64,000 nucleotides of DNA, from the NCBI GenBank assembly GCA_964520425.1, contig CAZFMX010000004.1:7526-71525 (forward strand), written 5' to 3'. Made by a program: the position numbers and the translations under genes. This document shows, piece after piece, positions 1,640 through 17,567 of the stretch. A model generated the notes under the pieces. It worked only from the letters and a program-made list of their open reading frames with translations. It searched no databases and was not told the origin of the DNA. The stretch's first letter is position 1; each line of letters opens with the position of its first letter. Origin of the DNA: an uncultured Desulfobacteraceae bacterium (GTDB lineage: Bacteria; Desulfobacterota; DSM-4660; Desulfatiglandales; HGW-15).

Positions 1640-2518
1640 CTATGACAGGTTGGCCTCGTTCAGAATTTGAGGAAGCCTGTCTTCCCAGCCTACGGTTGAG
1701 ATCAGTACGCCGGCCATCCCCATCTCCTTTAGCTGGGTTATGATCTTTGCAGCAATAGTTATGCATTCCTGAACTTTATCAGGGGCCTTTTGAATACTTG
1801 TGATTATCTCAGAGGGAATGGAGGTCCCCTTTATGTTTCGATCAATGTATCGTGCCATTCCGGCGGATTTTAACAGGAGAACGGTAGGAATGATCGCCAC
1901 TTGGGTTGTGTCCACTCTCTTAACAAATTGTTGGAAACGACGGGTGTCAAACACTGGGTTTGTTATGATATATTCTACCCCGAGATCTATCTTCTTTTTG
2001 AGGTTATCCAACTCGATTTCCAGAAGACCTCCCGGGGTGCCGGTGTCTATGGTAGAACCCACAAAATAGGTGGGTGATCCTTTCAACTCAATGCCAGCCA
2101 GATCTTTTCCCATCTGAAGTTTCTGAAGGGTTTCGAGGAGACCCATAACGTCCAAGTCATTAACAGCTCTGGCTTGAGGATGATCCCCGAAATTGATGTC
2201 CTCCCCTGCCGTGACCACGACATTCTTAATGCCCAGTGCTGATGCGGACAGGAGGTCGGCCTGAAGGGCTAGACGATTCCTATCCCGACAACAGACCTGA
2301 AAAACCGTTTCGACTCCTGCTTCTTGCAGCACGGCGCACCCTCCCAAAGAACTCGCCTTCAGGACGGCATTCCCCATTTCAGGGACTATGAGTGCATCTA
2401 TGCGACCTTTTACTTGATTGGCACTCCTAAGAAAAGGCGAGAAGTCGATTCCTTTTGGCGGCTCAAATTCACCAAGGACAACGAAATTCCCCGATTTTAT
2501 CTTTTCCTGTAACGGCAT
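1640..2518 (-). CDS. metF: Methylenetetrahydrofolate reductase family protein (second MetF-like paralog)
   Basis: The 292-aa product is a TIM-barrel MTHFR-like sequence (QVCCRDRNRLALQADLLSASALGIKNVVVTAGE) and a paralog of 6315..7247. It sits 105 nt upstream of the Sec-hdrA start. Confidence 0.7.
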   Translation of the reverse strand: MPLQEKIKSGNFVVLGEFEPPKGIDFSPFLRSANQVKGRIDALIVPEMGNAVLKASSLGGCAVLQEAGVETVFQVCCRDRNRLALQADLLSASALGIKNVVVTAGEDINFGDHPQARAVNDLDVMGLLETLQKLQMGKDLAGIELKGSPTYFVGSTIDTGTPGGLLEIELDNLKKKIDLGVEYIITNPVFDTRRFQQFVKRVDTTQVAIIPTVLLLKSAGMARYIDRNIKGTSIPSEIITSIQKAPDKVQECITIAAKIITQLKEMGMAGVLISTVGWEDRLPQILNEANLS

Positions 2519-2723: not shown

Positions 2724-4211
2724 TTAGGGGCTTTTCCCATCTTCCCTTATAACCGGTAGCAATATTCTAAAAGTAGTTCCTTTATCAGGAACGCTTTCCA
2801 CGTCAATCGTACCATTATGACTTTCTACCACACCTTTTACTATGGTGAGTCCCAATCCTGTACCTGTCACATTACGAGTCTTTTTGTTTTTTATACGGTA
2901 AAACTTGTCAAAGATCTTAGGGAGTTCTTCCGGGTCAATGCCTACTCCCGTGTCACTTACTTTGATTTCCATATATTCCCCCAGGACCTGGGCATTCACT
3001 TCGACCCGACCCCCTTCAGGAGAATAATTGATGGCATTGGTGACAAGGTTATTGAGGATCTCTTCAATTCCTTTGGGATCCGCATGAACGGGCTTCATGT
3101 TCTTGCAGGAGTCAATAAGGGTAATTCCCTGCTTCTGGGCCCTGGGCTTCAACAGAGAGAGGGTATCCTTGATGAGTGATTCGATATCCGTAGGCACTCG
3201 ATGTTGTACCTGTTTTCCCTCTTCAAGCTTCGCGATGTCCAAAAGATCATTGATCAGCTCAAGGAGTTGGTCTATTTTCTTTACTCCCTTTCCTAGGAAT
3301 TCCTCCTGCTTTTCCCCAAGAGGACCGAGTAACCCCTCTAGAAGGACAGTGTTTTGTTGCCTGATGGAAATCAATGGACTTCGGAGTTCGTGGGCTACCA
3401 TATTTATAAAATCTGATTTCATCTCGTCGAGTTGTCTAAAGGCGGTGATATCCTGCAAGACCGTGACTGTCCCGACGAGCCCATCATCGGGGCCGAGGGC
3501 TGGTGCCGAAATGGCCCTCAGGACCATTTTCCCGGCGCTGATTTCCTGGGACACGAACTCATCTCTTGCAGATTCACCGGTCTGGATACCCTCAAGTGTA
3601 TTTCTCAGAGCCCTGTCATCTATAATCTGATTCACTAATACGGGATTTTCGACCTTTCCCGATATCTCCAGCAGCCTCATCAATGCGGGATTGTGAAGGA
3701 CAACTTCCAGGTTGCGGTTAGTGACCATTACACCATCAGCCATACAGTTGATTATGGTCTTCAGCCGGCTTTTTTCCAGGTCGAGATCATAGAGGTTTCT
3801 CAATTTCTCCTCTTCATATGAGTGGGCTCTCTTTTCAAGCGCCCTCTTTTCGGCAGCCCGATTGATGGTTAAGAGAAACTGATCGATCTGGAAAGGCTTG
3901 GTTATAAAGTCATAAGCGCCCTGCTTCATACAATCCACGGCGGTATCCACGGTTCCATGTCCCGTGATAATGATGACCGGGATGTCCGGATATTGAACGC
4001 GCGTTTTTTCCAGGACCTCCTCGCCACTCATGACAGGCATTTTCAGGTCGAGCAGGATAACATCTACGGTCTCTTTGTTCAGCAGATCCACAGCCTTTTG
4101 TCCGTTTTCAGCGGTCAAGACCTCATATCCCTTTCCCGTTAACACACGGCTGCATCCCTCCCTAACAACCTGCTCGTCATCTACAACCAATATCTTTGTT
4201 TTATGATCCAT
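2724..4211 (-). CDS. Hybrid response-regulator receiver / PAS / histidine kinase
   Basis: It has an N-terminal receiver (ILVVDDEQVVRE...LLDLKMP), an H-box MVAHELRSPL, and HATPase_c boxes (NAINYSPEGG, DTGVGI, GTGLGLTIVKG). Confidence 0.85.
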   Translation of the reverse strand: MDHKTKILVVDDEQVVREGCSRVLTGKGYEVLTAENGQKAVDLLNKETVDVILLDLKMPVMSGEEVLEKTRVQYPDIPVIIITGHGTVDTAVDCMKQGAYDFITKPFQIDQFLLTINRAAEKRALEKRAHSYEEEKLRNLYDLDLEKSRLKTIINCMADGVMVTNRNLEVVLHNPALMRLLEISGKVENPVLVNQIIDDRALRNTLEGIQTGESARDEFVSQEISAGKMVLRAISAPALGPDDGLVGTVTVLQDITAFRQLDEMKSDFINMVAHELRSPLISIRQQNTVLLEGLLGPLGEKQEEFLGKGVKKIDQLLELINDLLDIAKLEEGKQVQHRVPTDIESLIKDTLSLLKPRAQKQGITLIDSCKNMKPVHADPKGIEEILNNLVTNAINYSPEGGRVEVNAQVLGEYMEIKVSDTGVGIDPEELPKIFDKFYRIKNKKTRNVTGTGLGLTIVKGVVESHNGTIDVESVPDKGTTFRILLPVIREDGKSP

Positions 4212-4253
4212 GATGAATGATAGCCCTTCTCCGAATTAACCGCTCGTGCTCAA

Positions 4254-5825
4254 TCAATTATCCAATCCGACAAAAAGAGGTTCTTCCGAGGTCCTCGCCA
4301 CAAATCCCAGGGGGATCTCGATAACGAAGGTGGTCCCTCCCTCAGGAGGAGAGTCTATGGCAATGCTGCCACCGTGCAGAGAAATAATGTTCTTGGTAAT
4401 CGTCAATCCCAGACCTGTTCCCTTTCCAGGGGCCTTGGTAGTAAAGAAAAAATCAAAGATCTTTTCCCGCATGTTCTCCGGGATACCTGGACCGGTATCA
4501 GAAACGCGGATATGGAACTGATTCTTTTCAGGTTCAAACCGCGCTTTGATATCCAGACGGCCGTTACCTTCCATGGCGTCTGCGGCATTCATGAAGAGAT
4601 TGGTAAAGACCTGCTGGAGCTGGGCCATGTCACCCACCATGCTGGGCAGGTCCGAATCTATTTGTTTGGTGATGGATATATTTTGAAAAAGGGCCTGATT
4701 GACCAAGAGAACCAGTGTCTTGTCAATCAATTCAGCTAAACTGAAAGAGGATATTTTGCCCACGGACTGCCTGCTAAACTCCAGTAGATCGGATACAATC
4801 CTTTTACATCTTAATGTCTGTTGAATGATTTCGTTTGCGTCATTGAAGTATTGGGGATTATCCTTCAAATTCTCCTTGAGCAGTTCGGCGAAGATCAGGA
4901 TGCCGGACAGAGGGTTATTGATTTCATGAGCGACACCGGCGGCCATTCTGCCTATAGATGCGATTCTCTCTGATTCCACCAGTTGGAGGTGGGCATCCTC
5001 CAGGTCTTTTCTCATCTGGAGAACTTCCCTCATATCCCTAAAGACCCCGACACTGGCTGTCTCCTTGCCGTCAATAGTGATGATAGAGGCGGATAAGGTG
5101 ACCGGAATTTTCTCACCTTCCTTTGTGGTGATCGTCATGTTGGTAGGATTTAATTTCCCTGGAGGCCCGTGCCGGTCACTGCGCATCTTCTGCATGTTTT
5201 CTTTTGCCACATCTATGTCATAGAAGCTGCTTAAATGACCCATATCCGTCATCTCCCGGGCCGAGTATCCTGTCAGTGCTTCCATCCCTTGATTCCAGAT
5301 CAGGACGTTTCCTTTGGTATCAGAGACAACAATGCCGTCCACAGTACTCTGGATCATATTTTGAAAAAAGGTGTTGGATTTTCGGGCTTCTTGTTCCAGC
5401 ATAAATCTTTCCGTCACATCCCTGGATGCTTCAAGAATCTGGACCAATTCACCCTCTTTGTTACAGATGGGGGCAATGGTGACTACGTCATAACGGATTT
5501 CGCCGCTATCATCGAGATATTCGTTGTAGACACTGATGGACCTATTCTCTTTGATCTCGTCAAGGCGCTGCCTTATGTTACAGACTCGGCCAAGTTCATC
5601 ACATGGTTGGTTGAACCCATACCTCACCAAGTAACAAGGTTTGCCCCGGACATCATCATAGCTTAGGCCGAGTTCATTCAGAAAGGGTTGATTCACGGTG
5701 TCAATGGTCATATCCGTGTTGACAACCATGATTCTGTAAGGAATAGAATCTAGGATAAGTTGTGTATGGTTCTTGTCTTTTTCTCGGGAATCCGTTCCCT
5801 CTTTTCCTAATTCCATCTTTTCCAT
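4254..5825 (-). CDS. PAS-domain sensor histidine kinase
   Basis: It has PAS-like repeats, an H-box GVAHEINNPL, an N-box NLFMNAADAM, and G-boxes DTGPGI and GTGLGLTITK. Confidence 0.85.
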   Translation of the reverse strand: MEKMELGKEGTDSREKDKNHTQLILDSIPYRIMVVNTDMTIDTVNQPFLNELGLSYDDVRGKPCYLVRYGFNQPCDELGRVCNIRQRLDEIKENRSISVYNEYLDDSGEIRYDVVTIAPICNKEGELVQILEASRDVTERFMLEQEARKSNTFFQNMIQSTVDGIVVSDTKGNVLIWNQGMEALTGYSAREMTDMGHLSSFYDIDVAKENMQKMRSDRHGPPGKLNPTNMTITTKEGEKIPVTLSASIITIDGKETASVGVFRDMREVLQMRKDLEDAHLQLVESERIASIGRMAAGVAHEINNPLSGILIFAELLKENLKDNPQYFNDANEIIQQTLRCKRIVSDLLEFSRQSVGKISSFSLAELIDKTLVLLVNQALFQNISITKQIDSDLPSMVGDMAQLQQVFTNLFMNAADAMEGNGRLDIKARFEPEKNQFHIRVSDTGPGIPENMREKIFDFFFTTKAPGKGTGLGLTITKNIISLHGGSIAIDSPPEGGTTFVIEIPLGFVARTSEEPLFVGLDN

Positions 5826-5949
5826 CTGGGTTGTAACCGTTCAGCGGCTAAGCCACGAGGAGGACGTGTCGACAAATAGCCAAGGAACCTCGATTCACTA
5901 ACGGCTCGCGATGTTGAAGCTTCCTGCAGGTCTCTCTAATTCCGCCGCC

Positions 5950-6240
5950 TCACGATGTTTCACTATCCAACCGCAATATAAGTTTCTGTTCGAGATCCTT
6001 GATAATGTCCTTTAAACTAGGAGTCTCCTGGATAGGCCCTGAATTGTTCCATCCCTTGATCAGGGCCTCCTCTTTCTTTTTTCTGAATACTTCAATGTTG
6101 GAAGCCATGGTCTTCCACAGGAACAACTTCTGAAGGATATGCCGCTCCGGAGCAGTCAAATCGATCTCCGTATCATATGTTTTTCCGTCTTTGGTGGTAA
6201 TGATCACAGTGAAAAAGCAATAAAGAATCAAGTGTGACAA
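5950..6240 (-). CDS. Hypothetical small protein
   Basis: This is a 96-aa ORF with no recognisable motif. It lies downstream of a terminator-like hairpin after metF, so expression is uncertain. Confidence 0.3.
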   Translation of the reverse strand: MSHLILYCFFTVIITTKDGKTYDTEIDLTAPERHILQKLFLWKTMASNIEVFRKKKEEALIKGWNNSGPIQETPSLKDIIKDLEQKLILRLDSETS

Positions 6241-6285
6241 TAAGTTGGTGCAATATCTTAAGGGACAAGTGCTGTAGAACTCAAG

Positions 6286-6305
6286 AAAAAAGCCTTCTCA
6301 GAAGG
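6286..6305 (-). terminator. Putative intrinsic terminator after metF
   Basis: On the minus strand a CCUUC-UGA-GAAGG hairpin is followed by C and six U residues, about 10 nt after the metF stop. The stem is short (5 bp). Confidence 0.4.
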
Positions 6306-6314
6306 ATGGCGTCA

Positions 6315-7247
6315 TCAAACCTTGGGTCTTGGAAGGAGACCGGCTCTCTCTGCGATCTCCGGGACTTTGTGTTCCCATTCGATGGCCATGAGATGAACAC
6401 CGGCTACACCTTCCATCTCTTTAAATTCTTCAATCTGCTCGAGTGCGAATTTGATGCCCTCTTCAGCTACTTTCCCTTTTCCCGCTCCTCTCAGTCTATT
6501 GATCAGAGATTCGGGCACATCCATGCCGGGGACCGCTTTGGCCATATACTGGGCCATACCAAGGCTTTTCATGGGGGTGACTCCGGCCAAGATATAGCAC
6601 TTCTCATGAAGACCCATATCGACCACCTTTTTCATAAAATCCCTAAAGATATCCATATTGTAAATGCATTGGGTCTGAACGAAATCCGCCCCTGAGGCGA
6701 TCTTCTTTGCGAGTCGGTGAACCCGGAATTCAATGGGATCTGCAAATGGGTTGGAGGCAGCCCCTATAAAGAGCCTGGGCGAGACATCAAGCTGCTCCTC
6801 ATTCAGGAATTTGCCCTCATCCCGCATCTTTTTGGCTAGGGAGATAAGTTGCATGGAGTCTAAGTCAAAGACGTTCTTGGCCTGGGGGTGGTTCCCAAAA
6901 CGCTGGTGATCGCCGGAAAGACAGAGCATGTTTCGGATGCCTAAAGTATAGGCGCCCAGGATATCACTCTGCATGGCCAAACGGTTCCGATCACGGCAGA
7001 CCATTTGATAATTGGGCTCAATTCCTTCTTGTATCAATATCGTGGAAGCGGCCCAGCTGGACATTCTAACCACCGCTGTCTGGTTATCGGTGATATTGAC
7101 CGCATCTACCATCCCTTTCAGGTGGGCAGCCTTTTCCTTGAGATGGTCCGTATTCGCGCCCTTTGGGGGACCACATTCGCCGGTAAAGGTAAAGTGCCCG
7201 GCTTTGAGGACCTTTTCAAGATTGCTTCCAGATTTCAGATCGTTCAT
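6315..7247 (-). CDS. metF: Methylenetetrahydrofolate reductase, acetogen-type MetF
   Basis: The 310-aa product has MTHFR motifs (MVCRDRNRLAMQSDILGAYTLGIRNMLCLSGD). Its start overlaps the metV stop by 4 nt, and it is the last gene of the hdrCBA-mvhD-metVF string. Confidence 0.85.
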   Translation of the reverse strand: MNDLKSGSNLEKVLKAGHFTFTGECGPPKGANTDHLKEKAAHLKGMVDAVNITDNQTAVVRMSSWAASTILIQEGIEPNYQMVCRDRNRLAMQSDILGAYTLGIRNMLCLSGDHQRFGNHPQAKNVFDLDSMQLISLAKKMRDEGKFLNEEQLDVSPRLFIGAASNPFADPIEFRVHRLAKKIASGADFVQTQCIYNMDIFRDFMKKVVDMGLHEKCYILAGVTPMKSLGMAQYMAKAVPGMDVPESLINRLRGAGKGKVAEEGIKFALEQIEEFKEMEGVAGVHLMAIEWEHKVPEIAERAGLLPRPKV

Positions 7248-7912
7248 TCTACCAGTCCCTCCTTAGCACTCTTTCGGGGCCCGCCGTCCCTTGAGGTCTG
7301 CCAATCCTTGGCTGGTGTTATTCGGAGTAGATCCTCCAGACGGCCCTGTTCCATTTTCTTTCTCACGATCATGTCCCAGACACAGTCAACTTCCCTTGAG
7401 ATCTCACACTTTCCCTTGGCCGAACCGCCACAAGGCCCGTTGAGGAGGTTTTTAGAACAACGAGCAACGGGGCATAGACCGCCGGTCAGGTGGAGGATGC
7501 AGTCTCCGCACATAAGACAGCGCTCAGTAAACAAACCCGGTCCCTCAACTACACCGATGAAAGTGGTGTTGAGTCCGGGCAGAATGATCTTCTCCGGCCA
7601 TTTCTCGGAGGTGAACTGGACCCCGGCCCCGCAGGCGATGGAGAGAACGGCGTCGGCCCACTCGATCTGTTCTTTCGCGGAATCGAAGAATTCGTGTTCG
7701 CACTGCCGCTCGATTCCCCCATTCTTGATGTCGATCTCTATACCTTCCTGTTTGGCCTTCATCCTCAACATGGAGGCCAAGATCTCTGCTTCCTTATTCC
7801 CCCCCTCGTGGCAAATGGCCACGCAGGTGTTGCATCCGAAGATCAAGACCTTCCTGTATTCTTTGATCATGTCCCAGATGACTTCGAAGGATTTTTGTTT
7901 CCCGACAATCAT
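7244..7912 (-). CDS. metV: MetV (Cys-rich MTHFR small subunit, MTHFR C-terminal-like domain)
   Basis: It carries the Cys clusters CNTCVAICHEGG and CLMCGDCILHLTGGLCPVARCSKNLLNGPCGG. It sits between mvhD and metF. Confidence 0.8.
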   Translation of the reverse strand: MIVGKQKSFEVIWDMIKEYRKVLIFGCNTCVAICHEGGNKEAEILASMLRMKAKQEGIEIDIKNGGIERQCEHEFFDSAKEQIEWADAVLSIACGAGVQFTSEKWPEKIILPGLNTTFIGVVEGPGLFTERCLMCGDCILHLTGGLCPVARCSKNLLNGPCGGSAKGKCEISREVDCVWDMIVRKKMEQGRLEDLLRITPAKDWQTSRDGGPRKSAKEGLVE

Positions 7913-7918
7913 CTTAAT

Positions 7919-8443
7919 CTACTCCTTTCCGGAGTACTTGGATTCCGTTCCAGAATATCTGGATTCCGCAAGCCGAATGGGGGAGGGACCGAGCTTTTTG
8001 ATCTTCTCTGTAAACTCGGTACAGATTTCCGCCCATCTGGGTCCCATGGCTGCGGAAAGGTTATACATCTCAAGCCGTTCCGGATCAATATCAACCTTAA
8101 TTAATAGATTCTTTAGATACTCAATCCTCTTTCTGGCGTTTGTATTTCCTTCCAGGAAATGACACTGTCCGGGCAGTCACCCGGCAGCAAATACGCCGTC
8201 CATGCCTTTCTCGAACGCGCGAAGAACATAGATGTGGTCCAGCTTGCCTGTGCAAGGGAGCCTGATGATCTTTACGTTTGTAGGATAGGAGAGCCGCATG
8301 ACCCCAGAGAGGTCTGCGGCCGCGAAAGCGCAATAGTGGCAGGCAAAGGCCAGGATGTTGGGCGACCAGTCCGAAGGGATGTCGTGCGGTTTCTCTACGG
8401 AGGAGGTATCCTCCTGTGCCACGGTTGAAGCTTCTTCTGTCAT
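7919..8443 (-). CDS. mvhD: MvhD-like [2Fe-2S] protein, predicted selenocysteine-containing (174 aa with read-through)
   Basis: The ORF-track stub 8177..8443 ends ...DGVFAAG-TGA. The same frame continues LPGQCHFLEGNTNARKRIEYLKNLL...FTEKIKKLGP to TAG 7919-7921, matching the MvhD signature GC(U)xxGxCH(Y/F)xxGN. Confidence 0.8.
8144..8160 (-). promoter_or_regulatory. Candidate bacterial SECIS hairpin for mvhD
   Basis: On the mRNA a 6-bp stem AUUUCC/GGAAAU with loop UGGAA starts 16 nt after the UGA. It was found by eye only. Confidence 0.4.
8177..8179 (-). other. In-frame UGA, predicted selenocysteine codon of mvhD
   Basis: It sits where MvhD/VhuD family proteins have the first Cys of the G-C-x-x-G-x-C-H motif. 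Confidence 0.75.
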
Positions 8444-8463
8444 GTTCTCTCTATCTTTCCTCC

Positions 8464-11400
8464 CTACATGCTCGTTCCTTCGGCCAGTGTATCTATCATG
8501 GCCAATATTTGCCCGTCTTTGAAGTTATTGACCTGAAATGCCTTGGCCGGACAGACACCCGCACAGATTCCACATCCCATGCATTTGACCTCGTTGTGGC
8601 TTACCTTGCCCTCTTCGTCGATATAGGGTGAATCAAAGGGACAAACTCTGAAGCATGTGAGACAGGACATGCAGATATCCCGGTTGTGCTTGGAAATAAT
8701 CCCGGATACGGCCAGTTTGTCCTGAGACAGGATGACACCGGCGCGACCGGCAGCGGCTAGGGCCTGGGAAATAGTTTCATCCAGATTCTTGGGGGCATGG
8801 GCCAGTCCGCACAGGAAGATACCCTCGGACGGAAAGTCTACGGGACGAAGTTTGACGTGGGCCTCCAGCAGGTAGCCCTCCGGATTGCGCGTCAGTTTGT
8901 AAATCTTGGCGACCTCTTCTGTCGTTGGGTGCGGTCTGAGGCCCGTGGAAAGCACCAGCCAGTCCGCTTCAAACTCGACTTCTCGGCCGAGCATATCATC
9001 GAAGGTCTTGACCCGAAGATTGTCTTCTGAAACCTCCACCTGAGGTTTCCTTTCCGGGATATAGTTTACAAAGATCACGCCCAAATCGCGCGCCTTAAAG
9101 TAGTAGTCTTCCCTGAGCCCGTATGTCCTGATGTCACGATAGAGGATGATGACCTGTGTATCAGGCGAGTGTTCTTTGATGGCGATAGCGTTCTTTATAG
9201 CGTCCTGACAGCAAATACGGGAGCAGTAATTATCAGGCTCCTCTCTGGAACCCACACACTGGATCATGACATATTTTTCGCCCGCTTGAACGCCATGATT
9301 GGCTGCAAGCCTCTTCTCCAGCATTCGCTGGGTGATCACCCTGTCGTTCTCCCCGTAAAGGTATTCCTTGGACTCATATTCGGTACCGCCAATGGCCACG
9401 ATAATAGCCCCATGCTCGAACGATGTTCCGTCAGTCAGGGTTGTCTTGAAGTTGCCCACAAAACCATCAGTGGATTTGACCTCAAGCCCCGTGTGAATGG
9501 TGATGCGCGGGTGGGCCTGGATCTCTTCGATTTTGGTCTTTAAAAAACCCTGCACATCGCTTTTATCCAGTGTATGAAAAAGATTGCGAGCCAGACCGCC
9601 CAGGTCAATCTCCTTTTCCACCAGGTGGACATCAAAACCCTGATCACCCAGTGAAAGGGCCGCGGTGATGCCGGCTACTCCGCCGCCAATGACCATGGCC
9701 CCGGGAATCACGCCCACCGAGTCGGTGGTGACCGGCTCCAGCAGCCTGACCTTGGCTATATTCATTTTAACAATGCTGATGGCCTTTTCTGTGGCATCTT
9801 CATTCTGTCCCATGTGACACCAGGAGCATTGCTCGCGGATATCGGCAAGCTCGAACAAATACTTGTTCAGTCCGGCTTCACGGATAGTGTCCTGGAACAG
9901 GGGCTCGTGGGTTCTTGGTGTGCAAGAAGCCACCAAGACCCTGTTCAAATTTTTCTCCTTGACGATCTCCTTTATTCGCTCTTGTGTGTTCTGTGCGCAG
10001 GCGTACATTGTATTTTCAGCATGTATAACGCCCTGTTCACCTTTCACAGATTCGACCACCTTTTCCACATCTACGGTCTGGCTGATATTGATTCCGCAGT
10101 GACAGACGAATACCCCGATTCTGGGCTCTTCTTTGGTGATGTCTGTTTCCGGCGGGAGTTCTCTGGTCACCGTCTCTGTGCCCCTGGCCTCACCCAGCAA
10201 AGCCATAGCCTCTCCCGCTACAGCGCTTCCCTGCATCACGGTCTCGGGTATGTCCTTGGGGGATTGGAATATACCCGTGACAAACACACCATCTTGAGAG
10301 GTATTAACCGGCTGAAATTGGGTTGTTCTGGGAAAGCGGTGGTCATTGAGCGCAATATCAAAGGTCTTGGCCAAATCATCCACGTCCGAGTGGGGCTGAA
10401 AGCCGATGGAGAGGACGACCATGTCAAAGGTTTCGTCCACCAGGGTTCCATCCTCTTTAGCATAGCGCAGCACCAGGTTACCTGTTCCGGGTTCTTCCCT
10501 TATTGCCGAGATCATGGCCCGTTGATACCGGACGCTGTAGTCGTTCTTGGCACGATCCACATACTTGTCAAAGTCCTTTCCAAAGGCTCTCAGCTCCATA
10601 AAGAAAATGGTGGGATGAATTCGGCTATCATGTTCGGTGGCAATAATGGCCTGCTTGGTGGCATACATACAACAGACCGAAGAACACCAGGGATTGGCAT
10701 TGTGTCGGTCCCGGGATCCTACACATTGAATCCACGCGATTTTTTCAGGATGCTTTCCGTCGCTGGGGCGCTTGACCGTTCCCTGGTACGGGCCGGACGC
10801 GGAAAGGATGCGCTCAAACTGAATGGACGACACCACGTTGGGCCAACGGCCAAACCCCAGTTCCTGTCGGACGCCGGCGTCATAGCGGGCGAGACCTGGG
10901 GACAGAATAATGGACCCCACATTGATTTCCATGGTCTCGGGTTGCTGCGCGTGGGTCTCCAGTGTTACCGCTCCAGGAAGACAGGCCTCCACGCACTGAA
11001 AACACTCGCAGCAATATGAACAATTCAAACACCGATGGGCCTCTGTCTGACCGGTCTCTATATCCAGACCCAGCTCCACTTCCTTGAAGTTTCCTTCTCG
11101 CTTTTCAACAGGCAACTCCGGCATTTTGGCTCGATCCTTCTTGTGTTGGCCTTTTGGAATAGGACGGTAGACCGGATCCTCTTTGGTGATGGGTTCCCGT
11201 CCCTCGGCCATGTCCCGTCCGTCCAAATAACGGACAATGGATTCGGCTGCCTCCCGGCCTGAGGCAACGGCACCAATGGCCACCCATGGACCGGTCTGCA
11301 CATCTCCACCCGCAAAAACACCGTCGCAGTTGGTGGCATAGGTGATGGAATCCGTTTCAACCGTACCCCACCGAGAGAATTCCAGACCGGATATCTCTTC

Positions 11401-12912
11401 CAGGGCGGAAAGATCAGGTGTTTGACCGATGGCCGGAATGACCTGGTCGAGTTCCATATCAAATTCACTCCCAGGTATGGGGACCGGCCTTCTTCTACCC
11501 GACGAGTCGGGCTCCCCAAGTTCCATGCGAATACACCGCAGACCAATCACCCTGTCGTCCTGGAGGAGGACTTCCTGGGGGGCTGAGAGAAAGGAGATCT
11601 TCACCCCTTCCTCCTCTGCGGCCTCGACTTCTTCCTCCCAGGCCGGCATCTCCGCGCGAGTCCTTCGGTAGATGATAGTGACTTCTTCGGCCCCTAGCCG
11701 GACTGCGGAGCGGGACGCGTCGATGGCCACATTACCGCCGCCGACGATAGCCACTCTTCTTCCCACAGCCGCCTTACCCTTAAGGTTCAGTTCTCTAAGA
11801 AAATCCACACCCTGTCGTACACCCTCAGCCTCATCACCGGGGATACCCATCTCAATCCCTCTATGGGCCCCAGTAGCCAGATATATGGCCTTGTAGCCTT
11901 GATTCAATAGGGTTTTGACCGTCAAATTCGGGCCCAGGGGCGTGTCGGTCCTGATCTCCACACCCAGGTTGGTGATGACCTCGATCTCCCGATCCAGAAT
12001 GTCTCGAGGAAGACGATGCTCAGGGATGCCCACCCGCAGCATGCCGCCGGCTTTGGGCAGGGCCTCAAAAATCGTGGATAAGACCCCTTTCCGTGCTAGA
12101 TGATAGGCCGCGGAAAGCCCCGCAGGGCCCGAGCCGATGATAGCCACCTTCTCCTCCCTTGGAGGGAGACATTCAATCTCTATTTCCCGGGGATCAAACT
12201 GGTCGGCTGCAAGGCGTTTCAGGTCCCGAATGGCTATCGGATCATCCACATCACACCGACGGCAGGCATCTTCACATCCATGGGGACAGATTCTGCCGAG
12301 CACACCGGGCAGGGGGAGATCTTGCATAATGATTTTCAGGGCCTCTTTGTATTTCCCCTGTCCCACCATCTGTACATACCCCTGTACATTCAATCCCGCG
12401 GGGCAGGCCAAACGGCAGGGGGCTTTGTCCATCTTTCGGATGGCATAGGCGCTCGGAATGGCTTGGGCATATTCTTTGTAGGTTGCTCTTCTGGTGGAAA
12501 GACCTTGCTCGTATTCATTGGGGAGTTCTACAGGGCAGACCCTCGCACAATCGCCACAGGCCGTACACTTTGCCTCATCAATGTAACGAGGATTCTTGCG
12601 GATGGTGACTCTGAAATTCCCTTTGGGACCCTCAACCTTCTCCACTTCTGCGCAGGTGATCAGGTCTATATTGAGATGCCGGCCGACCTCCACCATCTTG
12701 GGTGAGATCATACACATGGCACAGTCGCCAGTGGGAAAGGTCTTATCCAACATGGCCATGGTCCCGCCTATGCTTGAATCTTTCTGGACTATATGTACCT
12801 TGAAGCCGGCTTCAGCAAGGTCGAACGCGGACTGCATGCCACCCACACCGCCGCCTACGATCAGGACCGATCCTTTTACTCTATTACCATTTGAGGAGGC
12901 ACTATCACTCAT
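8464..12912 (-). CDS. hdrA: Giant HdrA-like flavoprotein: HdrA module + inserted GltD/NfnB-like NAD(P)H module + second HdrA module + ferredoxin domains (1482 aa)
   Basis: Motifs in order are VLIVGGGVGGMQ; DCAMCMISPKM; GltD-type [22 protein letters not shown]; [13 protein letters not shown] and [15 protein letters not shown]; CVGSRD...CSSVCCMYATKQA; a second MVIGGGVAGITAAL and CVGSREEPDNYCSRICCQDA; and the C-terminal CMSCLTCFRVCP/CMGCGICAGVCP. Confidence 0.9.
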   Translation of the reverse strand: MSDSASSNGNRVKGSVLIVGGGVGGMQSAFDLAEAGFKVHIVQKDSSIGGTMAMLDKTFPTGDCAMCMISPKMVEVGRHLNIDLITCAEVEKVEGPKGNFRVTIRKNPRYIDEAKCTACGDCARVCPVELPNEYEQGLSTRRATYKEYAQAIPSAYAIRKMDKAPCRLACPAGLNVQGYVQMVGQGKYKEALKIIMQDLPLPGVLGRICPHGCEDACRRCDVDDPIAIRDLKRLAADQFDPREIEIECLPPREEKVAIIGSGPAGLSAAYHLARKGVLSTIFEALPKAGGMLRVGIPEHRLPRDILDREIEVITNLGVEIRTDTPLGPNLTVKTLLNQGYKAIYLATGAHRGIEMGIPGDEAEGVRQGVDFLRELNLKGKAAVGRRVAIVGGGNVAIDASRSAVRLGAEEVTIIYRRTRAEMPAWEEEVEAAEEEGVKISFLSAPQEVLLQDDRVIGLRCIRMELGEPDSSGRRRPVPIPGSEFDMELDQVIPAIGQTPDLSALEEISGLEFSRWGTVETDSITYATNCDGVFAGGDVQTGPWVAIGAVASGREAAESIVRYLDGRDMAEGREPITKEDPVYRPIPKGQHKKDRAKMPELPVEKREGNFKEVELGLDIETGQTEAHRCLNCSYCCECFQCVEACLPGAVTLETHAQQPETMEINVGSIILSPGLARYDAGVRQELGFGRWPNVVSSIQFERILSASGPYQGTVKRPSDGKHPEKIAWIQCVGSRDRHNANPWCSSVCCMYATKQAIIATEHDSRIHPTIFFMELRAFGKDFDKYVDRAKNDYSVRYQRAMISAIREEPGTGNLVLRYAKEDGTLVDETFDMVVLSIGFQPHSDVDDLAKTFDIALNDHRFPRTTQFQPVNTSQDGVFVTGIFQSPKDIPETVMQGSAVAGEAMALLGEARGTETVTRELPPETDITKEEPRIGVFVCHCGINISQTVDVEKVVESVKGEQGVIHAENTMYACAQNTQERIKEIVKEKNLNRVLVASCTPRTHEPLFQDTIREAGLNKYLFELADIREQCSWCHMGQNEDATEKAISIVKMNIAKVRLLEPVTTDSVGVIPGAMVIGGGVAGITAALSLGDQGFDVHLVEKEIDLGGLARNLFHTLDKSDVQGFLKTKIEEIQAHPRITIHTGLEVKSTDGFVGNFKTTLTDGTSFEHGAIIVAIGGTEYESKEYLYGENDRVITQRMLEKRLAANHGVQAGEKYVMIQCVGSREEPDNYCSRICCQDAIKNAIAIKEHSPDTQVIILYRDIRTYGLREDYYFKARDLGVIFVNYIPERKPQVEVSEDNLRVKTFDDMLGREVEFEADWLVLSTGLRPHPTTEEVAKIYKLTRNPEGYLLEAHVKLRPVDFPSEGIFLCGLAHAPKNLDETISQALAAAGRAGVILSQDKLAVSGIISKHNRDICMSCLTCFRVCPFDSPYIDEEGKVSHNEVKCMGCGICAGVCPAKAFQVNNFKDGQILAMIDTLAEGTSM
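11397..12381. repeat. Copy 2 of the >=985-bp perfectly identical segment (inside hdrA, GltD-like insertion)
   Basis: See 1..985. It covers about aa 178-506 of the 1482-aa protein. Confidence 0.9.
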
Positions 12913-13784
12913 ATCAAGTTCAACTCCTTCAAGAGGCCGATTGCATCCACAAAATGCCTGTCGATTTGCAGCTCTTCAGGGGATTTGTCCATGGCCACTC
13001 CAATAAGCTCGGTAATGAAGTAGACAGGCATGCTCTGGCCAATGTCATATTTTTGCTTCATCTGTTCCTGGTATGCATCGAGGTTGAGCTGGCACATTGG
13101 GCAGGTAGTGACAAAACAGTTGGCTCCTCTCGCAATGGCGTCCTTAAAAATCTTCGACATGAGCAGGAGCGCGGTATCGGTGTCGTTAACGGTCGCGGAT
13201 GCCCCACAGCAGTCGGTTTTGTAGCTCCAGTCCAAGGGCTTGGCACCGAGGGTTTTGAGAACGATCTCCATCCCCTGTGGATTTTCTACATCGTCGGGCA
13301 CGGGCACATCATATGGGAACCTGGTTTGAAGACATCCGTAGTAACATGCGGGTTCCAGACCCTCGAGTTGCTTGACCGCCTTTTCGGCAAGTTCGCCGGA
13401 CTCGGCCTTCGGTATCAATACCTCAAGAATACTCATAATCCTAATGTTGCTCTTTACTTTTTTGGACAACTCCGCGTTGATTTCGTCCCTTAGTCTATTG
13501 TTAGACGCAAGTCTGTGTTGTGCGACCAGCATCCGGCTATAGCAGGCCGAGCAGGGGATCACCAACTCAGAGAGCCCACAGTCGTCCGCAATACCCAGGT
13601 TGCGTGCGGGCATGGCAACCGACAGGAAGTCGTCGGTCTTGCTGGCAGATGTGGCACCACAGCAATTCCAGTCTTCGAGCTCGTTCAGGTTGATTCCCAT
13701 CTCCCCTAGCACCAACTTGGTCTGTGTGTCATAGAGCTGACTCGATGCGTGTAATGTGCATCCAGGGTAATAGGCAATTTCCAT
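12909..13784 (-). CDS. hdrB: Heterodisulfide reductase subunit B-like (CCG-domain protein)
   Basis: It has two CCG-type motifs (WNCCGATSA; DCCGASATV...CPMCQLNLD). Its stop overlaps the hdrA start by 4 nt. Confidence 0.85.
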   Translation of the reverse strand: MEIAYYPGCTLHASSQLYDTQTKLVLGEMGINLNELEDWNCCGATSASKTDDFLSVAMPARNLGIADDCGLSELVIPCSACYSRMLVAQHRLASNNRLRDEINAELSKKVKSNIRIMSILEVLIPKAESGELAEKAVKQLEGLEPACYYGCLQTRFPYDVPVPDDVENPQGMEIVLKTLGAKPLDWSYKTDCCGASATVNDTDTALLLMSKIFKDAIARGANCFVTTCPMCQLNLDAYQEQMKQKYDIGQSMPVYFITELIGVAMDKSPEELQIDRHFVDAIGLLKELNLI

Positions 13785-14425
13785 TATGTCCCCCTGCTCA
13801 TGTCAGACTCTGTCAGCGGCCCGTTTTTTTTTGCCTTCTTGAGAAGGCGTTTGAGATCTGAAAGGTGTTTGATCTTTTGGATCCCGAAGTGCATGCGTTT
13901 TTTCTTGGTCATACGCAGGCCGAGTTTCGCCTGGAGCATGGTCTCTTTGTATATCTCTTTGAACTTGAAGCGCATGAGGTTGCGGAAGGTGTCCTTCATT
14001 TCATAGAGGCCCATAAATTCGATTTCATTGAGCCTTCCCAAGTGGTTGGCCGCGGTACAGAAGGATTTATGGAAGGCTGCGACTTTTGGAAGGAGTGGAT
14101 CCAGATGCTCCTCTTTGGACATATGTTTGAGGGTCTCGGTGATCTTTGCGGTTTGTATTTCGTTTGGGCAGCGGGTGCCGCATGTATAGCACGACACACA
14201 CTTCCAGACCAGCTTGTTACTGAGGGCCTGTTCCCGGTCGCCGAGCAGTATCATTCGAATCAAACGATCAGGCGTGACATAGCCGGTCTCTTCTCCCACA
14301 GGACATCCTGCAGCACATCGTCGGCACTGATAACAGGCGGTAATGTTCTGCTCTGACCGCGCCATTACCTCATGCACCAGTGCTTGCTTGCTTTCGTGTT
14401 CAAATTTTAAGGCAGGAAGTGCCAT
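13784..14425 (-). CDS. hdrC: Heterodisulfide reductase subunit C-like (2x[4Fe-4S])
   Basis: It has the motifs CYQCRRCAAGCP and CVSCYTCGTRCP. It overlaps the hdrB start by 1 nt. Confidence 0.85.
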   Translation of the reverse strand: MALPALKFEHESKQALVHEVMARSEQNITACYQCRRCAAGCPVGEETGYVTPDRLIRMILLGDREQALSNKLVWKCVSCYTCGTRCPNEIQTAKITETLKHMSKEEHLDPLLPKVAAFHKSFCTAANHLGRLNEIEFMGLYEMKDTFRNLMRFKFKEIYKETMLQAKLGLRMTKKKRMHFGIQKIKHLSDLKRLLKKAKKNGPLTESDMSRGT

Positions 14426-14512
14426 TTCAGTACTCCTTGGTCACACTTTAAGGTTCTCCAAATCCGATTTACAAAATCTTTCACGATCGCCCCTTTTCTT
14501 ACATTTCGATCC

Positions 14513-14530
14513 ATGAGATACCTATCTCAT
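14513..14530. promoter_or_regulatory. Perfect 8-2-8 palindrome, candidate operator in the divergent hdrC / membrane-Hdr intergenic region
   Basis: The sequence is ATGAGATA-CC-TATCTCAT, about 88 nt upstream of the hdrC start codon. Confidence 0.35.
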
Positions 14531-14827
14531 ATTCGATTTATGTATATTTCAGGATGTAGTGGGTTATGGATCCGAAGAGGGGCTATTTCTAGCTCGATCT
14601 GGGGATTTCCATCAACCTGAAAGGTGGCGGAGTCCAGATTTTGTGAAATATTTAACATGCCATTTCAGAGGCCGTGTGTCAAGGGGAAAGTTCTTTTGGG
14701 GATGATCTGAACCAGGTTACTAGGTTGTTAGATAACATTTCGGAATTCCACATCATATTCAATATTGGGCTCAGCCAGAAGGAGCTCAGCAGTTTTTTCT
14801 GGGGCGAGATTTTGTTGTTGACCTCCT

Positions 14828-16639
14828 GTGTTACCGTCTGGTACAAAAGTCAACCAAATCCTCCAGCTTGCAGAGATGAGGCCCATTATGTTCTTTAGCA
14901 TCAGCCTGTATATTGCTCTGGGTATTTTTGTCCTTGGCCTTTTATGGAGAATCTCCACCTGGTTCCGTTATAGTGTCGGACCCGGAGCCCGGGAGATAAA
15001 GGCATCACAAAGGCTTTTTGCGGCCATTAAGGGAAGTATTCTTACCATATTAAGCCCAAAGATCCTGATTCTTCTGAAAGTCTTTGTCTTAGATGTCCTC
15101 GTCCAAAGAAGGGTATTTGTGGAGAGTCCTCTCCGGTGGGCCATGCATATGTGCATATATGGCGGATTCATGCTTTTACTCCTCATGCATGCCCTTGAAA
15201 AATTTATTACCCTCACACTGTTTCCGGACTATACTTCTACACTCAATCCTTTTCTCTTTCTGAGGACTCTCTTTGGTCTAATCGTCCTGATTGGATTGGG
15301 ACTCTCTTTCTACCGACGTCACATCCTAAAGATACCTCGTCTCATCAGTAATGCTATGGATCATTACATGGTGACCATCCTGGCTATCATCATGGTCTCC
15401 GGTTTTTTGCTGGAGGGGACGAAGATTGTATCTCACAACAAATATCAGGAGATGGTGGAAGACTGGTCAGACGTGGACGATGAAGAATCGTTTGAGGCCT
15501 TGGAAAGTTATTGGGTGGAAAAGTTCGGTGTTGTTTCACCTGATTTAAAGGGGCCCTTTGATGCGGAAACCCTTGCCCTGGGCAAAGAACTGCATGAGAT
15601 GAATTGTGAGGCCTGTCATTCCAGACCTCAGTGGGCGTTCATAAGCTATGGTGTTGCGAAGATCGTTTCGCCTCTCGCCGTTTCACTGGACAAGGCCGGT
15701 GTTCATACGATTCTGTGGTACCTGCATTTTCTGGCCTGTTTCGTAGGCCTGGGTTATCTTCCTTTCAGCAGGATGTTTCATATTTTTGCCGGTCCCTTGA
15801 GTCTGCTTACAAACGCTGTAATGGACAGAGAAAAATCAGACCCCGCCAATATAGCCACGAGGCAGGTGATGGAAATGGATGCCTGCACGCACTGTGGGAC
15901 ATGCAGTTTGCAGTGTTCTGTGGGTGTCCTATTCGAACAGATGCAGAACGTAAACATCCTTCCTTCTGAAAAAATGGCATCCGTAAAAAGGTTCACGGCA
16001 AATAGGATAGCCAAAGAAGTGGACATAAAACGTATTCAGGAGGGACTCTATCTGTGTACCAATTGTTACAACTGCACCCTGGTCTGCCCGGTTGGCATCA
16101 ATCTCCAAGATCTGTGGTTCAACTTGAGAGAGACCTTTATTCAGGATGGTCATCCCGAGGTGTTCACCCTTTCTACACTCTCATTCTATCGCGGGTTGAG
16201 GAAAGATGAGTTGAATGATAAGGATTACGAAAAACCATTGCAGCAGGCCAACCAAGCCCTGGCTGAGAAGTACGTTTTATTCGATTCGCAGGATTCACCT
16301 ATAGATCTTGGATCTCTGGGTAAGAGTTTTGAGAAGGATCTGAGAGCATCAGCTCAAGGAAGTACCTTTTCCTTTTGTTTTACGTGTACAACCTGTACGA
16401 GTGCCTGTCCCGTGGCATGTAATTACGATAACCCCCCGGATACCCTCGGGCTAACCCCTCACCAAATCATGCGTGCCGCTGCCATTGGGCTCCCTGATCT
16501 TATTTATCGCTCAAAAATGCTTTGGACCTGCCTCGGTTGTTATCAGTGCCAGGATGCCTGTCCTCAAGGGGTTCATGTCACGGATATCCTTTATGCATTG
16601 AAGAATATGGCCATAAGGCGTGTAAAAGAGAAGACGTAA
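14828..16639 (+). CDS. Membrane NarI/DsrM/HdrE-like cytochrome b fused to a four-cluster ferredoxin domain (DsrK/HdrD N-terminal-like)
   Basis: It has about 5-6 hydrophobic helices with His pairs (WAMHMCIYGGFMLLLLMHAL, ILWYLHFLACF). These are followed by CTHCGTCSLQCSVG, CTNCYNCTLVCPVG, CFTCTTCTSACPVA and CLGCYQCQDACPQG. The true start may be ATG 14876 (MRPIMFF...). Confidence 0.75.
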   Translation: MLPSGTKVNQILQLAEMRPIMFFSISLYIALGIFVLGLLWRISTWFRYSVGPGAREIKASQRLFAAIKGSILTILSPKILILLKVFVLDVLVQRRVFVESPLRWAMHMCIYGGFMLLLLMHALEKFITLTLFPDYTSTLNPFLFLRTLFGLIVLIGLGLSFYRRHILKIPRLISNAMDHYMVTILAIIMVSGFLLEGTKIVSHNKYQEMVEDWSDVDDEESFEALESYWVEKFGVVSPDLKGPFDAETLALGKELHEMNCEACHSRPQWAFISYGVAKIVSPLAVSLDKAGVHTILWYLHFLACFVGLGYLPFSRMFHIFAGPLSLLTNAVMDREKSDPANIATRQVMEMDACTHCGTCSLQCSVGVLFEQMQNVNILPSEKMASVKRFTANRIAKEVDIKRIQEGLYLCTNCYNCTLVCPVGINLQDLWFNLRETFIQDGHPEVFTLSTLSFYRGLRKDELNDKDYEKPLQQANQALAEKYVLFDSQDSPIDLGSLGKSFEKDLRASAQGSTFSFCFTCTTCTSACPVACNYDNPPDTLGLTPHQIMRAAAIGLPDLIYRSKMLWTCLGCYQCQDACPQGVHVTDILYALKNMAIRRVKEKT

Positions 16640-16664: not shown

Positions 16665-17567
16665 ATGGATTTTGCCATACAACGCTGCTGCGTAACACCT
16701 ATGTATCTGAAATCATACAACAGCTCAACGGATGCAGTCCTAAGGACACTTGATATAGGATTCGTGGACATCAAGGAATTCAACTGCTGCGGGTACCCTT
16801 TGAAGGATATTGACCTAAATGCCTACGTCCTCGCTTCGGCAAGAAATTTGTGTCTGGCTGAAAAGAGCAACCTAAATGTCATGACATTCTGCAACTGCTG
16901 TTACGAGAGCCTGAAAGAGGCGAAACATCTCTTGAGAGAGGATGAGTCCATAAAGAGGGACATAAATGAGAAATTGATGAAGGAAGACCTGGAATATAGC
17001 GGTTCCACGAAAGTGAGGCATCTGCTGGAGGTACTTTACACTGATGTGGGTTTAGAGGCCTTAAAAGAAAAAGTGGCCATGTCCTTTAAAGGCTTGAAGA
17101 TCGCAGTACATTATGGCTGCCATATTCTGCGTCCAAGGCAACTGGTTCAGTTCGATGATCCTGGAACGGCTAAGGTGTTTGATCAGCTGGTTGAGATTAC
17201 AGGAGCAGAGATTGTTCCATGGGAAGCCCAGCTCGACTGCTGCGGGGCCCCCGCGTGGGGAATAGATGATGATCTTTCCATGGATCTGACTCAAAAAAAG
17301 ACCAGGGATGCCCATCAGTCCGGCGCCGATTTTATCTGTGTTGCCTGTGCCTATTGTCAGCTTCAGTTCGATAGAGTTCAGAAGATGCTTCTTTCCAAGA
17401 GAGGGGAGGACAAGGGCCTCCCTTCAATCCTTCTTACACAGCTCCTTGGTCTGAGTTTAGGTGTTGATTCAAAGACCCTTGGAATTGACCAAAACGAACT
17501 GGATGCGATGGGAATTACACATTTTCTATCCTCCGAAGAATCCTCCACGCCATTAGAAGTTGCTTAA
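16665..17567 (+). CDS. HdrB/HdrD C-terminal-like CCG-domain protein
   Basis: It has the CCG motifs FNCCGYPL and LDCCGAPAWG...CAYCQLQFD. It lies 25 nt after the membrane Fe-S protein. Confidence 0.8.
   Translation: MDFAIQRCCVTPMYLKSYNSSTDAVLRTLDIGFVDIKEFNCCGYPLKDIDLNAYVLASARNLCLAEKSNLNVMTFCNCCYESLKEAKHLLREDESIKRDINEKLMKEDLEYSGSTKVRHLLEVLYTDVGLEALKEKVAMSFKGLKIAVHYGCHILRPRQLVQFDDPGTAKVFDQLVEITGAEIVPWEAQLDCCGAPAWGIDDDLSMDLTQKKTRDAHQSGADFICVACAYCQLQFDRVQKMLLSKRGEDKGLPSILLTQLLGLSLGVDSKTLGIDQNELDAMGITHFLSSEESSTPLEVA

Follow-up and report, generated by a model that had tools for sequence, protein, structure and literature searches.

A mosaic HdrL-type HdrA with a nested GltD-like module, probably the large subunit of an Hdr-type methylene-tetrahydrofolate reductase, in an uncultured Desulfobacteraceae bacterium

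We analysed a 64,000-nucleotide (nt) stretch of DNA, called the window below, from an uncultured Desulfobacteraceae bacterium (GenBank assembly GCA_964520425.1, contig CAZFMX010000004.1, positions 7,526 to 71,525). At 8464..12912 on the minus strand it contains an ATG-initiated open reading frame (ORF) of 1482 codons with no internal stops. The gene very likely encodes the large subunit HdrA ('HdrL', or Moorella HdrA) of a heterodisulfide reductase (Hdr)-type ('type IV') methylene-tetrahydrofolate reductase (MTHFR) encoded by hdrC-hdrB-hdrA-mvhD-metV-metF, as judged from sequence comparison and gene order. The original prediction for this DNA described a polypeptide of 1482 amino acids (aa) that unites two HdrA modules with a GltD/NfnB-like unit. 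The polypeptide and all of the quoted motifs are present in the translation (the strand, which the prediction had left out, is minus), but the combination is neither new nor unusual: the architecture is already published and the window protein adds no new domain order. What is new here is modest: a cassette exchange, a predicted NADPH/NADH split and a neighbouring membrane module, as leads into the enzyme mechanism.

The gene belongs to a same-strand series of six genes in the order hdrC-hdrB-hdrA-mvhD-metV-metF. The other five members are:
13784..14425, minus strand: hdrC-like di-cluster protein, 213 aa
12909..13784, minus strand: hdrB-like protein, 291 aa, with two Pfam CCG matches
7919..8443, minus strand: mvhD, with an in-frame TGA at 8177-8179 (residue 89) that, taken as selenocysteine, gives 174 aa
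7244..7912, minus strand: metV (DUF5981 / MTHFR C-terminal-type iron-sulfur protein), 222 aa
6315..7247, minus strand: metF, methylene-tetrahydrofolate (methylene-THF) reductase, 310 aa

Among related loci with enough flank, mvhD is found directly downstream in 55 of 60, and the whole mvhD-metV-metF set follows in 27 of 60, from many phyla including non-sulfate-reducers. Directly upstream, 17 of 65 loci carry hdrCB and 9 of 65 carry a second, divergent metF-like gene. The identical six-gene order (hdrC-hdrB-hdrL-mvhD-metV-metF) is found in a Nitrospiraceae metagenome-assembled genome (MAG). The link to methylene-THF made in the original prediction fits this operon, where mvhD-metV-metF come after hdrA.

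The gene and the parts of its product are listed below (FAD, flavin adenine dinucleotide; FeS, iron-sulfur; 5odc_A, Methanothermococcus HdrA).
8464..12912, minus strand: hdrL / Moorella-type hdrA, 1482 aa, predicted fused pseudo-heterodimeric HdrA with a nested GltD-like module
12598..12870, minus strand: aa 15-105, N-lobe of thioredoxin-reductase-like FAD domain 1, with GGGVGG at 20-25 and DC64AMC67, by alignment to 5odc_A 145-247
12433..12597, minus strand: aa 106-160, first half of the inserted ferredoxin domain, with C116, C119, C122 and C126, invariant in 42 homologues
11020..12432, minus strand: aa 161-631, GltD/NfnB/StnC-like module, with FeS ligands C166, C170, C209, C213, C217 plus C628 and C631; FAD residues GSGPAG at 260-265, E283 and R300; NAD(P)H residues GGGNVAID at 391-398 and Y415-R416-R417
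10948..11019, minus strand: aa 632-655, second half of the inserted ferredoxin domain, with C634, C637, C640 and C644
10198..10947, minus strand: aa 656-905, rest of FAD domain 1, with E700, C730, C743, C747, C748 and K753
9718..10122, minus strand: aa 931-1065, HdrA N-terminal (MvhD-like) cluster domain of module 2, with C937, C939, C972 and C997, matching 5odc_A 2-140
8713..9717, minus strand: aa 1066-1400, FAD domain 2, with GGGVAG at 1076-1081, E1199, C1219, C1230, C1234, C1235 and K1240
8467..8712, minus strand: aa 1401-1482, C-terminal 2x[4Fe-4S] ferredoxin domain, by Pfam and the 5odc_A alignment

The motifs quoted earlier for the Cys-rich segment are located at residues 166-175 and 208-217, those of module 1 at 730-735 (CVGSRD) and 743-750 (CSSVCCMY), those of module 2 at 1219-1224 (CVGSRE) and 1230-1238 (CSRICCQDA), and the two CxxCxxCxxxCP motifs at 1414-1425 and 1444-1455. 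Using Pfam and NCBIfam, we found FAD-type Rossmann matches beginning near residues 16, 255 and 1073, a GltD-type unit (Fer4_20, 4.7e-17, aa 151-240; Pyr_redox_2, 8.7e-55, aa 255-552) and a di-cluster ferredoxin at aa 1409-1458; together with a match to the HdrA2 model (943 bits), they agree with the parts that had been claimed. NF009410, a GltD-like 'NAD(P)-binding protein' subfamily, is the sole curated model passed (547 bits vs a 516-bit cut-off). The methanogen HdrA models score below their cut-offs (NF040770, 943/1100 bits; NF041778, 734/1400; NF041891, 671/1300), and the protein has two partial modules instead of one complete four-domain module of ~650 aa, so identity with methanogen HdrA was rejected. 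Identity with NfnB was rejected as well, since the unit is an internal domain, not a stand-alone protein of ~470 aa, and TIGR01316 is below its cut-off (380 vs 472 bits).

We aligned each half separately to solved HdrA structures. Module 1 (residues 15-160 and 620-905, with the insert removed) corresponds to 5odc_A 145-565 (E = 1e-118), a thioredoxin-reductase-like FAD domain with an inserted ferredoxin domain. Module 2 (residues 927-1475) corresponds to 5odc_A 2-234 and 320-649 (E = 8.5e-126), a region comprising the N-terminal cluster domain, FAD domain and C-terminal ferredoxin; no counterpart of 5odc_A 235-319, the inserted ferredoxin, is found in its alignment. The five-part reading of the original prediction therefore holds for two HdrA-type flavin modules, a GltD/NfnB-type FeS-FAD-NAD(P)H insert and a terminal di-cluster ferredoxin, but not for the completeness of the modules. 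Module 1 has its FAD domain split by the insert as described and is without the HdrA N-terminal domain and the C-terminal ferredoxin, and the 'complete' second module lacks the inserted ferredoxin domain and the Cys197 equivalent.

These losses are complementary. In methanogens, Cys197 of HdrA ligates the N-domain cluster of the partner protomer (PMC9012536). Its equivalent in the window protein, C67, is in module 1 only and the N-domain is in module 2 only; module 2 has LDKSDVQGF in place of the DCxxC loop, the source of Cys197 in methanogen HdrA. The two modules should thus pack as a covalently linked pseudo-heterodimer, a single chain imitating the obligate HdrA homodimer of methanogens. 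Both modules keep the Glu/Lys pair of bifurcating HdrA flavins (E700/K753 and E1199/K1240; the matching 5odc_A pair is E355/K408 by SEQRES count, which is E356/K409 in papers). For residues 1-930 we obtained a confident AlphaFold model (predicted local distance difference test, pLDDT, 85.8; predicted template modelling score, pTM, 0.83) whose low-confidence stretches include 57-67, the C64/C67 loop, the presumed partner domain being outside the modelled construct. Foldseek searches with this model recover HdrA (8rwn_A, target TM 0.93, aligned across the insert) and NfnB (5jca_L, target TM 0.81, aligned with the insert), and by motif count the whole chain holds three FAD, one NAD(P)H and up to nine [4Fe-4S] sites. 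The structure prediction suggested along with the original prediction recovers both the HdrA and the GltD-type folds.

The GltD unit is nested inside the inserted ferredoxin of module 1, between C116xxC119xxC122xxxC126-P and C634xxC637xxC640xxxC644-P. In methanogen HdrA this inserted ferredoxin domain is the ferredoxin-reducing branch. The closest solved structures for the insert, with E-values from sequence searches and identities from Foldseek, are:
9bov_A, NfnA of NfnABC, Caldicellulosiruptor: E 1.5e-135, 46% identity
9n5u_A, NfnA of NfnABC, Thermococcus sibiricus: E 3.6e-122, 41% identity
8oh5_C, StnC, Sporomusa ovata: E 4e-111, 39% identity
4ylf_B, NfnB: E 5.5e-97, 43% identity
5jca_L, NfnB (NfnI large subunit): E 9.8e-93, 42% identity

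All of these modules (StnC, 8oh5; NfnABC NfnA, 9bov and 9n5u; NfnB, 4ylf and 5jca) share with the insert the same fold, two [4Fe-4S] sites, FAD, an NAD(P)H Rossmann domain and an Arg at flavin N5, while the window module, unlike them, is an internal domain of an HdrA. The segment at residues 5-45 of NfnB (RNFxEV...EAxRCLxC) sits after the Rossmann domains here (~591-631), as in StnC and in contrast to stand-alone NfnB, and C628/C631, at the other end of the insert, would therefore complete the first GltD cluster; the HMMER sub-alignments behind this placement are weak (12-13 bits) and consistent across two NfnB structures. Motifs for the two [4Fe-4S] sites, the FAD and the NAD(P)H site are all in place, and all of the cluster cysteines, GSGPAG, E283, R300 and GGGxxAxD are invariant in 42 homologues. 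The built-in pyridine-nucleotide site that had been proposed is accordingly backed by NF009410, the Rossmann motifs and the structure matches, and the nucleotide- and flavin-binding residues, whose absence would have spoken against the proposal, are present.

At its beta-2 end the NAD(P)H Rossmann domain has Y415-R416-R417, like the NADPH-binding NfnB, GltD and StnC, which suggests that the window enzyme prefers NADPH over NADH. Among 85 insert-bearing homologues, 58 (the window protein included) have Y-R-R at these positions, 26 have C/S-(L/P/I)-E and one has V-R-G. By the general Rossmann rule, C/S-(L/P/I)-E would favour NADH. The homologues with this motif come mostly from Chloroflexota, Bacillota and Planctomycetota loci, and the two motifs may mark an NADPH vs NADH split within the family.

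The original prediction had the protein joining two electron-bifurcation systems. In its strong form the GltD/NfnB-like flavin would be a second bifurcating centre, with Nfn-type and Hdr-type bifurcation in series in one polypeptide; the insert does have the NfnB fold, with 39-46% identity to Nfn and Stn modules, and R300 aligns with the flavin-N5-contacting Arg of NfnB (R201) and StnC (R239). The GltD fold, however, is a general NAD(P)H-to-FeS input module that is also found in glutamate synthase and dihydropyrimidine dehydrogenase. To bifurcate, an NfnB flavin must have two exits, whereas the sequence gives one, a two-cluster chain that leads to the ferredoxin domain of HdrA, and no NfnA-like ORF (ferredoxin-NADP reductase-type with a [2Fe-2S] cluster) was seen among those scanned in the window. 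The same fold and the same conserved Arg at N5 are present in StnC, whose GltD flavin is experimentally non-bifurcating (PMC10482914), and the insert is colinear with StnC over 470 residues (the C-terminal RCLxC segment included) and with the NfnABC-type modules, not with stand-alone NfnB. The prediction over-read the GltD fold in this respect, and we consider a second bifurcating centre unlikely. Because a single cluster chain leaves the flavin and no scanned window ORF is NfnA-like, we read the insert as most likely a pyridine-nucleotide entry or exit point, wired to what is the ferredoxin-reducing branch of methanogen HdrA.

HdrL was defined in 2009 in Desulfobacterium autotrophicum (Strittmatter et al.) as a fusion of HdrA with glutamate synthase that has an NADH site and whose gene always precedes mvhD (PMC2702500), and the name HdrL that the original prediction gave for such proteins of marine sulfate reducers is correct. 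HdrL1-3 of D. autotrophicum HRM2 resemble the window protein in the fusion, the NADH site and the mvhD gene that follows each of them (PMC2702500), and the window cassette belongs to a Desulfobacterales-rich lineage (group B below). HdrL1 and HdrL3 are selenoproteins, whereas the window protein has Cys at that position (C67). The closest described counterpart is HdrA of Moorella thermoacetica (Moth_1194; 'type IV' MTHFR), for which Kremp et al. (2022) gave 1487 aa, the same domain map and the E/K pair in both modules, predicted three FAD, one NAD(P)H and eight [4Fe-4S] clusters, and reported the operon hdrCBA-mvhD-metVF (PMC9430772). It is similar to the window protein in length (1487 vs 1482 aa), in the order of parts (ferredoxin and thioredoxin-reductase-like domain interrupted by GltD, then MvhD-like N-domain, thioredoxin-reductase-like domain and C-terminal ferredoxin), in a second module without the inserted ferredoxin, in its E/K pairs (E696/K750 and E1204/K1246 vs E700/K753 and E1199/K1240) and in its operon. 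The two differ in that Moorella is from a different phylum than the mostly Desulfobacterota and Nitrospirota relatives of the window protein, that the window mvhD probably has selenocysteine, and that the window NAD(P)H site carries the Y-R-R of NADPH enzymes while the Moorella enzyme oxidises NADH. The logic of fused HdrAs is published too: Chadwick et al. (2022) described the Cys197/N-domain complementarity for fused HdrAs including the Moorella protein, as well as HdrAs with NfnB-like insertions in anaerobic methanotrophic archaea of the ANME-1 group (PMC9012536). HdrA9-11 of ANME-1 share such an insertion with the window protein (PMC9012536), and the fused HdrA3/4 share the complementary loss with the halves reversed (the N-domain-bearing half first), but the ANME-1 genes are not clustered with metF.

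Several points weigh against the assignment to an Hdr-type MTHFR. NADH-dependent methylene-THF reduction was never obtained with the Moorella enzyme, whose third partner is still sought (PMC9430772). The comparison with Moorella HdrA draws on its published description (length, domain map, E/K pairs and operon). One homologue (P0028) adjoins another hdrA, not metVF, and D. autotrophicum HdrL1 adjoins dsrAB, not metVF. The membrane-anchored HdrC/HdrB-like pair next to the operon (see below) is adjacent or nearby in few related loci only (L081, L076, L073 and L016). We also note that the best 120 matches with a Bacillota homologue (L042) as query named only Desulfotomaculia and relatives, with no Moorella entry.

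The gene neighbourhoods without metVF, which include some group B HdrLs, would suit an NAD(P)H:disulfide reductase (a DsrC-type 'bacterial heterodisulfide' reductase) of sulfate-reducer energy metabolism, the position next to metVF being incidental. Such a role has been proposed for D. autotrophicum HdrL and for Syntrophobacter HdrABC/HdrL, and both CCG cysteine motifs of the window HdrB, matched twice by Pfam CCG, are seen by eye. The spacing in the window speaks otherwise, as metV begins 6 nt beyond the end of mvhD and shares 4 nt with metF, and the recurrence of mvhD-metV-metF after hdrL in non-sulfate-reducers does not fit an incidental position. No dsr genes were seen in the 64-kb window, and the Moorella MetFV-HdrABC-MvhD complex is reported to have been purified with MetFV (PMC5861303). 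A disulfide reductase is therefore improbable, and the Hdr-type MTHFR is the reading that we follow below.

More than 120 full-length homologues (1350-1500 aa, 55-67% identity) have the same order of parts. In a one-genome-per-species scan, at least 598 of at least 599 matched stretches encode a relative, isolates such as Desulfotruncus arcticus included. Most relatives belong to Desulfobacterota and Nitrospirota, and the best 80 of the at least 599 stretches come from Desulfobacterota, Nitrospirota, Bacillota, Chloroflexota, Acidobacteriota, Planctomycetota, Spirochaetota and an Asgard archaeon. These searches contradict the 2009 claim that HdrL is unique to D. autotrophicum: HdrL is not special to one marine sulfate reducer but occurs in many bacterial phyla and in one or more Asgard archaeal MAGs. 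In 19 tblastn matches an in-frame stop is found exactly at the position of C67, where the window protein has Cys, and these homologues (e.g. P0037 and P0056; L003, L004 and L021) are likely selenoproteins mis-called in databases. The '1397-aa' homologues lack the first ~85 residues because their gene calls were truncated after the probable selenocysteine codon at this position.

The window gene is a mosaic. By region-wise protein identities to the window protein, homologues fall into three groups:
Group A (P0002, P0003, P0014): backbone 61-91%, GltD region 38-56%
Group B (P0028, P0037, P0056, L001, L002): backbone 32-54%, GltD region 70-79%
Group C, ~1010 aa (P0041, L047, L049, L055, L071, L073, L074): backbone 58-92% (P0041 82-92%), no GltD insert, ordinary ferredoxin segment

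The recombinant part, foreign to the backbone, is:
10926..12667, minus strand: recombinant cassette, ~aa 83-662, with the end of the FAD-domain N-lobe, ferredoxin half 1, GltD and ferredoxin half 2, of group B HdrL origin

Informative-site triplet scans place the breakpoints near residues 85-91 and 658-672. In one triplet, 27 A-type vs 178 B-type sites are found inside the segment and 263 vs 49 outside (Fisher p ~1e-56 to 1e-63, uncorrected for the breakpoint search). The phylogenetic placement proposed with the original prediction was carried out in the form of backbone and cassette trees (neighbour-joining without support values), and the two are incongruent: the backbone tree has the window protein as sister to the insert-less P0041, in a clade that interleaves insert-bearing and insert-less forms, and the cassette tree has it inside group B. 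P0041 is encoded on a JGI metagenome contig (L081) with the order divergent membrane gene, hdrC, hdrB, hdrA, mvhD. The L081 DNA shares 89.5% identity with window 15852..12668 and 84.8% with 10925..7923, and between these conserved blocks there are 335 nt in L081 (3186..3520) vs 1742 nt in the window (10926..12667). In DNA comparisons the cassette matched best to a Desulfobacteraceae locus with the other type of operon (L001; 74.9% over 1736 nt). GC content and GC content at third codon positions (0.563/0.588 in the cassette vs 0.527/0.620 in the backbone) are not clearly different, and the exchange for this reason looks old or its donor was similar in composition. No second HdrL gene that could have served as donor was found in the 64-kb window, the rest of which consists mostly of polysaccharide-synthesis genes. 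Our interpretation is an in-frame swap of the ferredoxin segment for a GltD cassette taken from a different HdrL lineage, or the opposite event in the relative; the interleaving of forms suggests that such exchanges happened repeatedly in the clade.

A mosaic of this kind could also come from a false fusion (through a missed stop or a frameshift) or from a chimeric metagenome assembly, given that the window appears to be from a metagenome-type assembly, that the identical protein is recorded on one 71.9-kb NCBI contig and that cassette and flanks differ in evolutionary origin. The missed-stop or frameshift fusion, which the original prediction had named as a way in which it could fail, was rejected on the uninterrupted ORF and the >120 independent full-length homologues, whose shared order of parts, like the species-level scan, also speaks against a chimera. 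A chimeric assembly is unlikely, as the template would have had to change twice and end up, still in frame, on the backbone where it began; the reading frame runs through both cassette junctions, all cofactor residues are kept, and analogous cassette differences are seen in other members of the backbone clade. Taken together, an artefact is exceedingly improbable, and we treat the exchange as a property of the gene.

The insert-less HdrAs of ~1010 aa from the same operon type (P0041/L081, L047, L049 and L055), comparable to Sporomusa ovata HdrA (101 kDa), share 86-89% aa identity with the window protein outside the cassette. The insert-less relative is 85-89.5% identical in DNA over hdrC, hdrB, the hdrA flanks and mvhD, and has the same mvhD selenocysteine codon and the same divergent membrane gene as the window. 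It has no built-in pyridine-nucleotide site, because an ordinary 335-nt ferredoxin segment takes the place of the 1742-nt cassette. The two thus form a natural enzyme pair, with and without the NAD(P)H cassette, on a near-identical background.

In the mechanism that we propose, three branches would meet at the HdrA flavin or flavins. The low-potential branch would run from the inserted ferredoxin clusters through the GltD clusters and the GltD FAD to NAD(P)(H), the high-potential branch from the thioredoxin-reductase-domain cluster through HdrC to HdrB (possibly also to the neighbouring membrane-anchored HdrC/HdrB-like pair and quinone), and the two-electron branch from the C-terminal ferredoxin through MvhD, MetV and MetF to methylene-/methyl-THF. 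Electrons from NAD(P)H would reach the module-1 HdrA flavin by way of the GltD FAD and four clusters, and the HdrA flavins that keep the Glu/Lys pair would couple the NAD(P)H branch to the other two. In the reductive direction, NAD(P)H (-320 mV) and a higher-potential donor would be confurcated onto methylene-THF (-200 mV); in the oxidative direction, as in acetyl-CoA oxidisers, methyl-THF would be bifurcated, with NAD(P)+ and an acceptor of higher potential taking up the electrons. We mapped this scheme onto a published idea, the confurcation of menaquinol and NADH onto methylene-THF proposed in a 2026 paper (PMC13040438). For the Moorella complex, electron transfer from NADH to benzyl viologen and from reduced viologen to methylene-THF has been reported, the two not being coupled (PMC9430772; PMC5861303).

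Among the methylene-THF reductases of the Wood-Ljungdahl pathway, this class is the one understood least. The energy balance of acetogens, and of organisms in which the pathway runs backwards, depends on its third redox partner, sought since 2014. The sequence split at the 2'-phosphate position (Y-R-R vs C/S-L-E) predicts the use of NADPH or NADH, and a candidate for the third partner lies next to the operon:
14828..16639, plus strand: 603-aa protein with a NarI-like membrane domain and two HdrC-like di-cluster domains, best NCBIfam match QmoC
16665..17567, plus strand: 300-aa HdrB-like protein (TIGR03288, 241 bits)

The pair diverges from hdrC, and its start is conserved in L081. In a Leptospirales MAG (L076) it is directly upstream of hdrL, in the usual place of hdrCB, and it is also found nearby in L016 and L073. 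From these few loci, we regard the membrane-anchored HdrC/HdrB-like pair as a possible quinone-linked partner, for which the support is thin; such a module fits the recent menaquinol hypothesis. A wider and tentative reading, which we hold as possible but doubtful, is that the inserted ferredoxin is a swappable socket, where replacing a plain ferredoxin by the GltD cassette would re-assign the low-potential partner from ferredoxin to NAD(P)H, that the window gene and its insert-less relative are a near-isogenic natural pair for this swap, and that the adjacent membrane pair is the third partner and the quinone link, giving a methyl-THF : NAD(P)+ / quinone bifurcating or confurcating system.

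The in-frame TGA of mvhD (context AAG-U-LPGQCH) probably encodes selenocysteine. Without readthrough, ORF calling gives an 88-aa fragment, while the read-through product of 174 aa is near in length to the 171-aa Cys form in L082. At the TGA column, 61 tblastn matches have Cys and 21 have a stop, all close type-1 relatives being among the 21. A hairpin resembling a selenocysteine insertion sequence (SECIS) after the mvhD UGA was no better than shuffles (z = -1.19), and an Rfam scan of 5800-15000 at E<=1 matched no SECIS or riboswitch model, so the call is a comparative one. The 3' end of mvhD (…ESRYSGTESKYSGKE) contains a short tandem repeat (window 7879..7968, minus strand, vs L081 6475..6626) whose copy number appears to differ between the two, as two L081 segments align to one window segment.

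Other genes lie downstream of the operon. Between metF and a second metF-like gene, at 2724..5825 (minus strand), we read by eye from the translations a PAS-type sensor histidine kinase (523 aa) and a response-regulator/histidine-kinase hybrid (495 aa), which may or may not regulate the operon. Past these two-component genes, a second, divergent MTHFR-like gene (1640..2518, minus strand) is 47-55% identical to the metF-like gene found directly before hdrL in the other type of operon.

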